8,169 bases of DNA from a virus (IMGVR_UViG_2541047720_000001:1-8169), one strand, 5' to 3'. Positions 135 through 6,484 are shown, numbered from the stretch's first letter. A program made the numbers and translations. Notes: generated by a model not told the origin, from the sequence alone.

Positions 135-162
135 ATTTAACATAATATACATTATGCGCACC
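135..162. other. dif: dif-type XerC/XerD recombination site, 28 bp, in reverse orientation; left junction of the integrated element
   Basis: 135-162 reads ATTTAACATAATATACATTATGCGCACC, the exact reverse complement of the E. coli dif sequence GGTGCGCATAA-TGTATA-TTATGTTAAAT (XerC arm, 6-bp central region, XerD arm). A 17-bp stretch (148-164) is repeated identically at 6470-6486. Confidence 0.85.
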
Positions 163-200
163 AATGGTAAGGATGGTGGGAACTGGCGTTACCGGTGCCG

Positions 201-434
201 TCATTGGTCACAGACCGTAATCCACTGGCCCAGGACGTCTTTCAGGCAATGTTGGCATAAATCCAGTTTTAAGCGATTACTGTCACCAAAAATTGAACCG
301 TATCCAGCTAAGTGATTAACAGACAGAAACTCATTGAACTCAATGTCATCTACCACCGTCTTCGCATGGCGACCACAGCGATCGCAGGTCTTCGCACATA
401 ACATTACAGTATCGCTGGATGTGAAAAATTGCAT
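201..434 (-). CDS. Hypothetical small Cys-rich protein (77 aa), possible zinc-ribbon; function unknown
   Basis: ORF with a strong Shine-Dalgarno (GAGGAG, about 6 nt before the ATG at 434). Cysteines at positions 13, 17, 20, 60 and 63 (CxxxCxxC ... CxxC). It sits between the intergenic hairpin and the left dif site, inside the element. Confidence 0.55.
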   Translation of the reverse strand: MQFFTSSDTVMLCAKTCDRCGRHAKTVVDDIEFNEFLSVNHLAGYGSIFGDSNRLKLDLCQHCLKDVLGQWITVCDQ

Positions 435-505
435 TTTATCTCCTCGTAATGCTGCCGCGCCGAATCAGCAATAACGCTAAAAAAACAGAATTGTTCGGCT
501 TGGCC

Positions 506-550
506 AACCCCGGACACTAACAAAAGCAAGTTTTGTCACTGTCCGGGGTT
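506..550 (-). other. Long imperfect hairpin immediately downstream of the gIV stop; candidate terminator or packaging-signal-like intergenic hairpin
   Basis: Arms 506-521 (aaccccggacactaac) and 535-550 (gtcactgtccggggtt) pair over 16 positions with one mismatch and one G:T wobble. The inner aaaa/tttt could extend the stem. On the minus strand it starts 1 nt after the gIV stop; a T-run follows about 25 nt further on. Confidence 0.45.
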
Positions 551-551
551 A

Positions 552-1706
552 TCATATAAACCAATAGACCGTCCTTACGCCATTCTGGTTATCAATAACA
601 TAGCCGCATTGTTTCCTTAAAAATTCTTCTGCTAAATCAATGGCTTTTAAAGAAATCTCATAAGAAGGAAGTAAAGTGTATCCTTTCCCTTCACTGGCAG
701 CTGCTTTGATCGCATCCAGAGTATTATCAATCAGTAACAGAGCAAGTGATGTTACCTTGAGAGAAACGCCAACATCATGACGCTCGATAGTCTGAAACGG
801 ATTATTTACCCCGGCAGATTCGCCCGTTACCTTTCCGGTGATAAACGGCACATTCTTACCTACGGAAATGTAACCAGTCTGACCAGACTGAGTAAGAATA
901 CGCGGCGTTGAAATCACCTTAGAGCGTGAATTACTCTGGACAGCACGCAGAGACAGCGCCAACACGTTACCATCAAAAATACCAAAAGAACCGCCCGCCG
1001 TAGAAAGAGCGCTACCCAGTGCAGAAGTATTAAAGCCCCCCGCAACCTTATGACCGGATGCAGAACCTGCCGCAAACGATAAATCAACGCCATCAGACAA
1101 GCTGGTTTCAAACATCAGCGACTGAATGAGAACCTGATCGCGGGCAACATCCACAGAATTGATAAAATCGGACAGAACCGGCAGCAGCTCGTCAGGCGCA
1201 GAAACAATCAGCGAGTTATTGCCTGGATAATCCACGACATTACCACCACCATTAGAATCAAGATAAATTTTAATCAGTTGCTGAACATCGGACGATCTAA
1301 CTTTTGTCAGCTTAAAATTTCTGACCGTAAGCGCCACAGGTACTGGCTGGTAAGATGGCTCAGAAGGAAAAGTATCATAAGACTGGTTATCAGAATCATC
1401 GGAATCCGAAACCATCTGTGAAGGTAATTTAGACGGCAAAGAGACTACCGCAGGATTGCCAGAAAGCATGACAAAACCGTTAGCATTCAGAACAGACTTA
1501 AAGAAATCATCAATATTTGTTGGATTAACATCAGCATTAAATACGGTTACGTTTCCTTTAATATCAGGATTAACAATAACAGGCTTGCCAGTTTTTGAAG
1601 AATACCACTGAACAAATGAGCGAACAGATGAATTGTTTAAATTAACAGTTTCAGCAGAAACGCAGAATGAACAGGCAAATAAAAAAGCAACAATAACAGA
1701 GCGCAT
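552..1706 (-). CDS. gIV: Gene IV protein (pIV) secretin-like phage export channel, 384 aa, with atypical C-terminus
   Basis: The N-terminal ~320 aa align by eye with M13/f1 pIV: signal peptide MRSVIVAFLFACSFCVSA then ETVNLNNSSVRSFVQWYS (compare MNNSPLRDFVTWYS), plus GGSFGIFDGNVLALSLRA, PRILTQSGQTGYISVGKNVPFITG and NNPFQTIER. Start chosen at the ATG at 1706 (AGGAG about 10 nt upstream); the six-frame ORF extends further 5' to 1799, overlapping gI. Confidence 0.8.
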   Translation of the reverse strand: MRSVIVAFLFACSFCVSAETVNLNNSSVRSFVQWYSSKTGKPVIVNPDIKGNVTVFNADVNPTNIDDFFKSVLNANGFVMLSGNPAVVSLPSKLPSQMVSDSDDSDNQSYDTFPSEPSYQPVPVALTVRNFKLTKVRSSDVQQLIKIYLDSNGGGNVVDYPGNNSLIVSAPDELLPVLSDFINSVDVARDQVLIQSLMFETSLSDGVDLSFAAGSASGHKVAGGFNTSALGSALSTAGGSFGIFDGNVLALSLRAVQSNSRSKVISTPRILTQSGQTGYISVGKNVPFITGKVTGESAGVNNPFQTIERHDVGVSLKVTSLALLLIDNTLDAIKAAASEGKGYTLLPSYEISLKAIDLAEEFLRKQCGYVIDNQNGVRTVYWFI

Positions 1707-1713
1707 AATAATA

Positions 1714-4922: not shown

Positions 4923-5240
4923 TTAACCTTTGATCTCTGCGATGCCACCATCGGAAGAAACATTATAAGTTACACCTTCCCTACCCTCCATTGACCACGC
5001 ACGGACATAGACAGGAATTTGAACTAATTTCCCAATGAAAGCATTCGCCTGGTTCATTAGACCTGCGTTAACGAGAGTCTGAGAAACTCGAATAATAATT
5101 TGATCCTGCTTTGTACCACCAAAACCATCAGGTATTTCAAGGCCAATACCAATTTCATTATAATAGCCCTGACCATTAACTTTATTACGTTGGCGGGCTC
5201 CCAACATTTTACCCTTAACGAAAAGACCATAATTAGACAT
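4923..5240 (-). CDS. Putative ssDNA-binding protein at the gene V position, 105 aa
   Basis: Position between the gX-like ORF and gVII, and size. An AAGGAAAG Shine-Dalgarno precedes the ATG at 5238-5240. Similarity to M13 pV is weak (only short Gly/Tyr-containing stretches), so this is a positional call. Confidence 0.55.
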   Translation of the reverse strand: MSNYGLFVKGKMLGARQRNKVNGQGYYNEIGIGLEIPDGFGGTKQDQIIIRVSQTLVNAGLMNQANAFIGKLVQIPVYVRAWSMEGREGVTYNVSSDGGIAEIKG

Positions 5241-5251
5241 ATTACTTTCCT

Positions 5252-5566
5252 TTAATGCCAGCTACTGGCGTGCGAAATACGGTTGTAATCGAAAATAAAA
5301 CCTTTCTCATAAATCCATAAGGGGATTTCCACTGGCTTGGCTTCCAGCGTTCTTATTAGCGGAACAACGTTATTAGAGTCTGGTGAATCACAATAGAAAT
5401 TAATATCGATACCGAACGAAAGCAATTCTCTTCTATGGCGATAAAAAGTGTTATGAGGTAACATTTCTTTCATGTTAGCCCCTTGTTTCCAAAGTAAATA
5501 AGTTGACTGTATTTTTCTTGGCAGTTTCGTTATTTTTTCATCACTTAAAATAGCATTCTGATTCAT
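5252..5566 (-). CDS. Gene X-like protein (homolog of the C-terminal domain of the Ff gene II/X replication protein), 104 aa, standalone
   Basis: Resembles the C-terminal part of M13 pII/pX as remembered: MLPHNTFYRHRRELLSFGID versus MPRNSFWRYVSALVECGIP, and NNVVPLIR versus NNVVPLVR. A strong Shine-Dalgarno (GGGAGA) precedes the ATG at 5564-5566. An in-frame stop lies 23 codons upstream (5633-5635), so there is no N-terminal gII extension. Confidence 0.6.
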   Translation of the reverse strand: MNQNAILSDEKITKLPRKIQSTYLLWKQGANMKEMLPHNTFYRHRRELLSFGIDINFYCDSPDSNNVVPLIRTLEAKPVEIPLWIYEKGFIFDYNRISHASSWH

Positions 5567-5682
5567 TTCTATTCTCCCTACATATTCAGAGAATAAATTT
5601 GTAATGGATTGAATACATCGAAAGCAAGTTCGCTATTGGCAAAAATTCAATCCCAGTCAAATAACACTCAACAAAAAAGATA

Positions 5683-6387
5683 GTGAAATCAGATATGGAT
5701 GTTCACGGTATCATTGATAATCAAAAAAAAGAAATTGAGCGTTTATATGAAAAATATACTGAGTCATTAGAGTGTTACCTATCTGGTAAATGTGATTTTG
5801 ATACCGTGAATTCATGTGGAGACAGTTTTTTCGGCTATTTAGAACACTGCGCTGCACATAACAGAACAGTAGATGAATTAAATAATACTCAATGGAATCA
5901 ATGGCTTGCAGAAACATGCATTGATGTTCTTCACCTTATCTTAGCTCATTACAAAAAATATAGAGAGGTAATGAATGATAATAGTATTAAACCAAGCTCC
6001 ACTGCTTTTGCTTCAATGCAAAGGATAGTAAAAGCCCATGACAAACGTTCTGCAAAAGAAATAAGGAATCTTTTCGTTAATGAAGATATGCCAGTATATG
6101 GATTTGACAATAAAGGAAAAGAAAAATTGACAAAAGCACACGAGAGAATAGCGGCATTTAGCTTTGGCATTTTACTTGTTATTCTTTTTATAATAATCGC
6201 AATATTTATACCTAATCCAACGAACTTTCAATACACTTTCTTTCGAATAATTCTTTCAGCAGCAGTTGCTGGGGTAGTCTCATTTATACCCGGGTTTATA
6301 GAAGTCAAAATATCAAACTGGGTAAGAGCAGGTGGAGCATTAGCTGTATTTGTGATTGTCTATTACGTGGCTCCCGCAGCATTATGA
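5683..6387 (+). CDS. Hypothetical membrane-anchored protein of unknown function, 234 aa from GTG at 5683 (230 aa from ATG at 5695); prophage cargo gene
   Basis: The only long plus-strand ORF. N-terminal ~160 aa are hydrophilic with several Cys and His. Two clear C-terminal hydrophobic helices (AAFSFGILLVILFIIIAIFI and FFRIILSAAVAGVVSFIPGFI) plus a hydrophobic tail (AGGALAVFVIVYYVAPAAL). Visibly more AT-rich than the neighbouring phage and host genes. Followed by a strong hairpin terminator. No strong Shine-Dalgarno, so the start codon is uncertain. Confidence 0.75.
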   Translation: MKSDMDVHGIIDNQKKEIERLYEKYTESLECYLSGKCDFDTVNSCGDSFFGYLEHCAAHNRTVDELNNTQWNQWLAETCIDVLHLILAHYKKYREVMNDNSIKPSSTAFASMQRIVKAHDKRSAKEIRNLFVNEDMPVYGFDNKGKEKLTKAHERIAAFSFGILLVILFIIIAIFIPNPTNFQYTFFRIILSAAVAGVVSFIPGFIEVKISNWVRAGGALAVFVIVYYVAPAAL

Positions 6388-6418
6388 ATTGGTTCGCACA
6401 ATGACGTTATGCTAAAGA

Positions 6419-6454
6419 GGCCGCTGCGGGATTCTATTTTCGCAGCGGCCTTTT
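6419..6454. terminator. Bidirectional rho-independent terminator (perfect 10-bp GC-rich stem)
   Basis: ggccgctgcg (6419-6428) pairs perfectly with cgcagcggcc (6441-6450) around a 12-nt loop. It is followed by TTTT on the plus strand and preceded by AAAGA (a T-tract on the minus strand). It lies between the 234-aa gene and the hipA 3' end. Confidence 0.7.
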
Positions 6455-6484
6455 CAACATAACGAGTCGTACATTATGCGCACC
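6452..6484. other. dif-like hybrid attachment site (right prophage junction): conserved XerC arm, degenerate XerD-type arm and extended spacer
   Basis: 6474-6484 ttatgcgcacc is identical to the XerC-arm complement of dif. 6452-6462 tttcaacataa matches the XerD-arm complement atttaacataa at 9 of 11 positions. The two arms are separated by 11 bp (cgagtcgtaca) instead of 6. Confidence 0.7.

Follow-up and report, generated by a model that had tools for sequence, protein, structure and literature searches.

A doubly deleted UPΦ-group filamentous prophage in the Escherichia coli dif site, with an attachment site predicted to integrate as a folded single strand

A filamentous phage (inovirus) prophage occupies the chromosomal dif site beside hipA in the 8,169-nt stretch IMGVR_UViG_2541047720_000001:1-8169 (the window; coordinates are counted from its first letter). 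In all likelihood it belongs to the UPΦ group, entered dif by the type of single-strand integration known from CTXφ, and was later deleted twice. The feature is of an already described kind, and a single-stranded DNA (ssDNA) pathway has been proposed in print for CUS-1 and Ypfφ. What is new is small: UPΦ uses the identical phage attachment site (attP) of CUS-1 and Ypfφ, as a circular record confirms; attP, gII and gV behave as a shared module, moving between otherwise unrelated filamentous phages; and the copy in the window is a doubly deleted remnant. Neither of the two points about the UPΦ attP changes the understanding of Xer-exploiting elements. For annotation, the true dif of this genome is 135-162, and 163-6484 is a decayed UPΦ prophage.

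Insertion into dif beside hipA

The flanks and the sites at the ends of the element are as follows, with hipA and hipB taken from the annotation of identical DNA in E. coli strain 16843 (L001) and in a second record (L002).

1-134: chromosomal left flank; in E. coli 536 it runs directly into dif and the hipA flank (100% identity)
135-162, minus strand: exact 28-bp dif (XerD arm 135-145, central region 146-151, XerC arm 152-162)
6391-6417, plus strand: inverted site 2 (attP2-like), GGTTCGCACAA TGACG TTATGCTAAAG, with a 5-nt centre
6419-6450: GC-rich hairpin between sites 2 and 1, 10-bp stem and 12-nt loop, from folds
6452-6484, minus strand: hybrid site 1 (attP1-like; XerD-type arm 6452-6462, 11-nt central region 6463-6473, XerC arm 6474-6484)
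6563-7885, minus strand: hipA (chromosomal)
7885-8151, minus strand: hipB (chromosomal)

To represent the empty site, window positions 1-151 were joined to 6474-6900, giving a composite of 578 nt. In E. coli 536 this composite is contiguous at 100% identity, the two flanks being joined through a single dif, and the element is therefore an insertion into dif. An empty dif between the left flank and hipA is what a prior reading of the window, made without database searches (the sequence-only reading), had predicted for E. coli lacking the insertion. At least 80% of the composite was covered in one place in 881 complete genomes. The first base of the hipA stop codon is 6563, which leaves 78 bp to the XerC arm of site 1. 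In MG1655 the distance from the hipA stop to the downstream dif, measured directly, is 76 bp, and dif has the same orientation; the distance had been put at about 75 bp, with dif just downstream of hipA. Across 4,843 complete E. coli genomes the dif 28-mer has a median of 1 copy per genome and at most 2. The empty site, the position of dif in MG1655 and the dif copy number all agree that dif lies here, and neither of the two findings that the reading had named as contradicting it was obtained.

The element encodes an inovirus gene set (gIV, gI, gVI, gIII, gVIII, gIX, gVII, gV and gX) on the minus strand, as expected of a filamentous prophage in dif. By the Pfam and PHROG assignments there is no integrase or recombinase among its open reading frames (ORFs), and no room is left in it for a further gene. 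It thus shows two features of integrative mobile elements exploiting Xer (IMEX), namely insertion at dif with a matching empty site in relatives, and the lack of a self-encoded integrase or recombinase. By analogy, its integration presumably depended on host XerC and XerD. The tandem array of CTXφ-type IMEX, the source of their new genomes, is absent, as the window prophage is one copy.

Three dif-type sites

The left junction is a perfect dif, as had been claimed: positions 135-162 are the exact reverse complement of GGTGCGCATAATGTATATTATGTTAAAT, i.e., GGTGCGCATAA-TGTATA-TTATGTTAAAT, and 200 shuffles gave no dif match with three or fewer mismatches. A systematic scan (XerC arm, 4–13 nt, XerD arm, with up to four mismatches) detected three dif-type sites in the window; 300 shuffles averaged 0.01. 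The second of these, site 1, reads GGTGCGCATAA, TGTACGACTCG, TTATGTTGAAA on the minus strand of 6452-6484. Both its exact XerC arm (11/11) and its 11-nt spacer had been recognized in the sequence-only reading. Its XerD-type arm had been called degenerate; the arm is indeed imperfect, but it matches dif at 9/11 positions and the word overstates the divergence. A parse of the right site with a 6-nt spacer was rejected, the resulting 'XerD arm', ACTCGTTATGT, being unlike TTATGTTAAAT. Positions 148-164 and 6470-6486 agree in all 17 bp, as reported, and the match stops there. Between the centres of dif and site 1, identity is confined to the XerC side (TGTA in TGTACGACTCG and in TGTATA), and on the XerD side there is none (...CTCG in site 1, ...ATA in dif).

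The third site (6391-6417) was absent from the earlier account. It is inverted relative to site 1, and the 34 nt between the two contain the GC-rich hairpin at 6419-6450, which may form the tip of a larger attP hairpin and is also a possible terminator of the neighbouring 230-aa gene.

The attachment site and its predicted single-strand fold

When the two junctions are put back together, the attP sequence predicted for the (+) strand of the phage is ...CCATT-GGTGCGCATAA-TGTACGACTCG-TTATGTTGAAA-(hairpin)-CTTTAGCATAA-CGTCA-TTGTGCGAACC-AATT.... The (+) strand was taken as the minus strand of the window, the sense of the core genes, a relationship established for Ff phages. The predicted attP is present at the junction of tandem prophage copies in strain 16843, and also in a circular 7,938-bp record of Salmonella enterica carrying UPΦ genes (NZ_CP140410), which contains no exact dif. 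Beside attP, where the window has the 230-aa ORF, the Salmonella record has a Doc-family (death-on-curing) toxin gene (NZ_CP140410.1 2138-2872).

As a (+) single strand, attP folds into one long hairpin (−31.2 kcal/mol, z −7.5) consisting of a stem formed by the XerC arms, an asymmetric 11/5-nt centre, a stem formed by the XerD arms and a GC tip. CUS-1, Ypfφ and the UPΦ copies have the same site 1 and site 2, letter for letter. Diverged versions, from an E. coli satellite array, Brenneria alni and a contig labelled Aerococcus, retain 11-nt and 5- or 6-nt centres, and every one starts with TGT. In an alignment of five attP sequences, 94.7% of cells are paired, compared with 33–48% when the partners are slid, and nine pairs have changes on both sides. 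Brenneria has three compensatory stem changes in the GC hairpin between the sites, and in all five variants G·T wobbles on the (+) strand replace what would be mismatches on the other strand.

The sequence-only reading had suggested that the long spacer might indicate which pathway was used, a folded single strand or a double-stranded site. The inverted partner at 6391-6417 points to the former, a folded single-strand attP of the CTXφ type, and this explains the long spacer. In CTXφ, as reviewed, attP1 with a 12-bp centre pairs on the (+) strand with an inverted attP2 whose centre is 5–7 bp; XerC catalyses the exchange of one strand pair, which is stabilized by bases beside the XerC arm and completed by replication, and there is no excision, since the duplex sites are not substrates. 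The window prophage shows the corresponding inverted pair of dif-like sites with a long and a short centre (11 and 5 nt, against 12 and 5–7 nt), computed (+)-strand pairing into two arms with an unpaired centre, and identity to the dif centre only beside the XerC arm, where TGT is common to dif and both phages. It is also alike in the order of the prophage (hybrid site, inverted site, reverse-oriented genes, rep/gII, structural genes, cargo and regenerated dif) and in the tandem arrays of its lysogenic relatives. Unlike here, where they are 34 nt apart, the CTXφ sites lie about 90 nt apart; phage lineage, host and cargo are unrelated, and the mechanism has been demonstrated for CTXφ whereas here it is deduced. 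Reviews class YpfΦ and CUS-1Φ as CTX-type and report attP features for direct ssDNA integration, and the Ypfφ genome is described as having inverted XerC/XerD sites with dif reconstituted at one end. The UPΦ paper (PMC7307601) describes dif integration and tandem copies, and mentions neither an inverted site nor a hairpin.

Proposed route of integration and its alternatives

By this model, site 1 (GGTGCGCATAA-TGTACGACTCG-TTATGTTGAAA) on the circular (+) single strand would pair with the inverted site 2, 34 nt away, and in the resulting hairpin two stems would imitate the binding arms of XerC and XerD, with an unpaired 11/5-nt centre between them. Host XerC would then exchange one strand with dif at the border of the XerC arm and the central region, the shared TGTA stabilizing the product, and replication would fix the insertion. 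The outcome would be a hybrid site beside hipA (6452-6484) and an exact dif regenerated at the far end (135-162). In the hybrid site, the XerD-type arm and 11-nt centre would come from the phage and the XerC arm from the host; in the regenerated dif, the XerC arm would be phage-derived and the central region and XerD arm host-derived. The junctions are as expected for exchange on the XerC side, in keeping with the proposal of XerCD-type integration of attP into dif. As a site with an 11-nt spacer is not an Xer substrate in duplex form, insertion is expected to be irreversible, by analogy with CTXφ. XerC-only catalysis, resolution by replication and the lack of Xer-mediated excision would likewise follow from the analogy.

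A related observation concerns the origin of the hybrid XerC arm. In Yersinia pestis NCTC5923 (L009), the host-proximal hybrid site (993-1025) has the XerC arm GGTGCACATAA, and the tandem Ypfφ junction (9735-9767) has GGTGCGCATAA. The difference is compatible with a host origin of the hybrid arm and would prove it if the ancestral Yersinia dif has the A; two metagenome scans found no empty dif with Yersinia flanks.

If the phage instead integrated as VGJφ does, the duplex replicative form would use site 1 alone as a reversible dif-like attP, and no part in integration would fall to site 2 or the hairpin, which might serve, for instance, as a terminator. The arms of site 1 are good enough for this (11/11 and 9/11), TGTA is common with dif on the XerC side, and the GC hairpin is followed by TTTT directly after the 230-aa ORF. 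However, VGJφ has a single 29-bp site with a short centre, whereas the 11-nt centre found here resembles that of attP1 of CTXφ, a site reportedly not recombined by Xer in duplex form. The position, orientation and 5-nt spacing of site 2 are kept across diverged phages, with compensatory changes and (+)-specific wobbles, and a terminator scan did not flag the hairpin. We regard this route as quite unlikely. Even less credible, and the least probable of the alternatives considered, is a TLCφ-type route, in which XerD strand exchange comes first, at a site without a true XerD arm. It is the third known class of IMEX and nothing specific speaks for it here; the XerD-type arm matches at 9/11, and the centre agrees with that of dif where it borders the XerC arm (TGTA...) and not at its XerD end, which is ...CTCG here and ...ATA in dif.

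Several points nevertheless weigh against single-strand integration of the CTXφ type followed by decay. The strand complementary to the (+) strand folds nearly as well (−29.1 kcal/mol), and the attP comparison comprises five sequences, three of them nearly identical. Because Xer binding places its own constraint on both arms, some of what looks like covariation may be due to conservation of the binding sites, and the central hairpin could simply be a terminator of the 230-aa gene. For XerC-only catalysis and irreversibility the model borrows from CTXφ, and helper-dependent mobilization of the deleted copy is conceivable.

Relationship to UPΦ, CUS-1/Ypfφ and IKe

From sequence comparison, the element (152-6473) is assigned to the published UPΦ group of inoviruses and not to CUS-1 proper. 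This identity rests on the 100% match to the prophage copies of strain 16843, on protein accessions in common with strain ECONIH2 and on a UPΦ primer site. ECONIH2 is the case-study strain for 'UPΦ viruses' (Shapiro & Putonti 2020, PMC7307601), and the prophage copies of strain 16843 encode the same RefSeq proteins as its prophages. The chromosomal primer IntCheck_FW of that paper matches window positions 93-112, and its reverse primer site falls inside a deleted stretch of 488 bp (see below). The defining combination of UPΦ, core genes like those of IKe and I2-2 in order together with a Ypf-like gV, is present. The structural genes have about 68% nucleotide identity to I2-2 and IKe over 51–54% of the element.

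Compared with CUS-1 (UTI89) and Ypfφ (Y. pestis), the parts that align are gV with the C-terminal part of gII (81.6%), the region 448-553 (87.7%) and attP (99%), and no nucleotide similarity to these phages was detectable across the structural genes from gVIII to gIV. CUS-1 and Ypfφ themselves share ~99% nucleotide identity over a core of ~7.1 kb (PMC4266046), a level the element does not reach. The sequence-only reading had compared the junction pattern with that of CUS-1/Ypf-type elements; the likeness holds for attP and the gV/gII module, but not for the structural genes, which are UPΦ/IKe-like. With CUS-1 and Ypfφ it has in common the identical sites 1 and 2, the hairpin and, in E. coli, the location between dif and hipA; it differs in its accessory genes as well as its structural genes. 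IKe and I2-2 (Lineavirus) are the nearest characterized relatives for the structural and assembly genes but have a different gII/gV module; they are described as non-integrating phages that lack both a dif-like site and the h genes (PMC7307601). The gII/gV module was found in 165 of 5,426 complete E. coli genomes, and the 166 records matching it include 48 at 99% or more (UPΦ type) and 104 at 80–90% (CUS-1 type).

Like UPΦ, the element has the same gene order, a g3p with GGGES repeats, h1 and h2, reverse-oriented accessory ORFs, dif integration and the flank primer site. Unlike UPΦ, it is single and not tandem, most of gII and its upstream region are lost, and gIV is truncated and fused to h1. 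The 229 'complete' UPΦ prophages were defined by a full gene set including gII, gIV, h1 and h2 (PMC7307601). Here gII is reduced to 114 codons and gIV is truncated and joined to h1, with only h2 of these genes intact, and the element is therefore a deletion derivative and not a complete member.

Strain 16843 has two tandem copies. ECONIH2 is reported to have three (PMC7307601), and the ECONIH2 region examined here (L016) covers two complete copies and runs into a third. The tandem copies of strain 16843 have identical core genes and different reverse-oriented cargo beside attP (L001 9350-10826 and 17724-19143); the array thus comprises two phage variants, and the right end of the window corresponds to the hipA-proximal one.

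Gene content

The remaining features of the insert are listed below.

201-434, minus strand: h2-type accessory gene, 77 aa (phrog_5435, E 4.5e-46)
497-550, minus strand: intergenic hairpin (fold of 440-560, −26.7 kcal/mol, z −6.0)
552-1706, minus strand: truncated gIV (secretin), continuing in frame into the last 66 codons of h1 (Pfam, PHROG)
1714-2808, minus strand: gI, Zot-type assembly ATPase (PF05707, E 2.6e-40)
2809-3150, minus strand: gVI, minor coat protein (PF17537, phrog_1944)
3150-4430, minus strand: gIII, attachment protein with linker repeats (PF21443 G3P pilus-binding domain, E 5.9e-26; phrog_4150)
4477-4719, minus strand: gVIII, major coat protein (PF19199, E 4.8e-19)
4739-4834, minus strand: candidate gIX, 31 aa, hydrophobic (translation; position and composition only)
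4834-4920, minus strand: gVII (PF19978 Inovirus_G7P_2 on the identical gene in L002; translation)
4923-5240, minus strand: gV, ssDNA-binding protein (PF17426, E 7.4e-51)
5252-5596, minus strand: gII remnant, C-terminal 114 codons only (PF05155 G2P_X_C only; phrog_702 positions 274-381/382)
5252-5566, minus strand: gX-type ORF, 104 aa (phrog_17464, full length)
5596/5597: junction of a 1,506-bp deletion, mapped against L001
5695-6387, plus strand: accessory gene, 230 aa, reverse-oriented (phrog_5814, full length, E 5e-144)

The gIII product combines an IKe-type pilus-binding domain with a GGGES-repeat linker. On the minus strand, a TAATG at 4832-4836 overlaps the gVII stop with the putative gIX start; a one-base stop/start overlap of this kind is also known from Ff phages. 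The h2 stretch (201-434) is 100% identical to strain 16843, where the gene is WP_001159442.1, an accession also found in the UPΦ strain ECONIH2. The intergenic hairpin at 497-550 may serve as a packaging signal, minus-strand origin or terminator, and the surrounding region (448-553), similar in CUS-1 and Ypfφ, lies between genes unrelated to theirs. The product of the 230-aa ORF has a hydrophobic C-terminal region (about residues 165-230), and its place is taken by different cargo in other UPΦ copies. Among the accessory ORFs there was no credible PADLOC match to a defence family and no Pfam family.

Two deletions and the state of this copy

The window equals three blocks of the strain 16843 locus (L001), which carries two intact tandem prophage copies, at 100% identity: L001 2388-3138, 3627-8472 and 18353-20925. 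Positions 751-5596 also equal L001 12001-16846, and 5597-8169 equal L001 18353-20925 (100%). The first gap is a 488-bp deletion with its junction at 751, through which gIV lost its final ~103 codons and h1 its beginning, what remains of the two being fused in frame. In the product, only 1-65 of the 169 positions of the Pfam Secretin domain are matched, and PHROG assigns residues 4-319 to pIV and 316-384 to h1 (phrog_4115). The 1,506-bp deletion at 5596/5597 took the N-terminal ~236 codons of gII together with the region upstream of that gene, and with them two small ORFs and the greater part of a third; a stop codon lies in the gII frame just upstream of the junction. Neither junction has useful microhomology. 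Both deletions would postdate insertion.

The entire window occurs exactly in the public assembly GCA_044043255.1, and the deletions are taken as natural for this reason. That they are assembly artefacts from a collapsed tandem array is very improbable, though not without a basis: relatives carry tandem copies of the sort that short reads collapse, and the structure of the window was found in no complete E. coli genome of the collection, with a best coverage of 91%. Set against this, both junctions lie in sequence that occurs once within a copy, away from the copy boundaries, and the secretin-h1 fusion protein was called independently on seven contigs in the NCBI and Logan assemblies, one contig form being present in 13 samples.

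With no replication initiator, no complete secretin and a single copy, the prophage very probably cannot produce phage, judging by the losses in replication, export and release genes, and it is most likely an ordinary dead-end remnant. It is unlikely, if less so than an artefact, that the deleted copy is not inert and persists as a helper-dependent satellite or as an expressed module (gX, gV, the 230-aa protein and h2) giving immunity or another benefit. Every gene that remains has 100% identity to its counterpart in intact copies, gX and gV have unbroken ORFs, the deleted form recurs in several samples, and satellite arrays with this type of attP are known in E. coli. However, perfect identity would also fit a very recent deletion in a single clone, the gII promoter region has been lost with no promoter-like site found by scan upstream of gX, and under the CTXφ model no rolling-circle release is expected from a single copy without gII. 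In Ff phages, gX and gV are replication inhibitors. A speculative extension, to which we would give just as little weight, is that this single copy, without a rep gene and presumably non-excisable, is a retained module of a circulating uropathogenic lineage, in which gX/gV and the membrane-protein cargo might protect against superinfection by UPΦ- or CUS-1-type phages, and, more broadly, that attP-gII-gV is a portable integration/replication cassette exchanged between unrelated inovirus structural modules.

Other occurrences of the module

[quoted passage not shown] Both are probably mis-binned enterobacterial DNA. In E. coli JNE112863 (L006, NZ_AP045072.1 1577181-1596204), a 3,674-bp unit is repeated in at least four tandem copies, starting near 7180, 10860, 14530 and 18200 in L006 coordinates. 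The unit has a gII-type rep gene, a gene for a small ssDNA-binding protein and a few small ORFs, with no structural genes, and its attP reads AGTGCGCATAA-TGTGTTACACG-TTATGTTGAAA with an inverted partner. The array adjoins a full-length, different inovirus prophage and looks like an RS1/TLC-style satellite array in E. coli.

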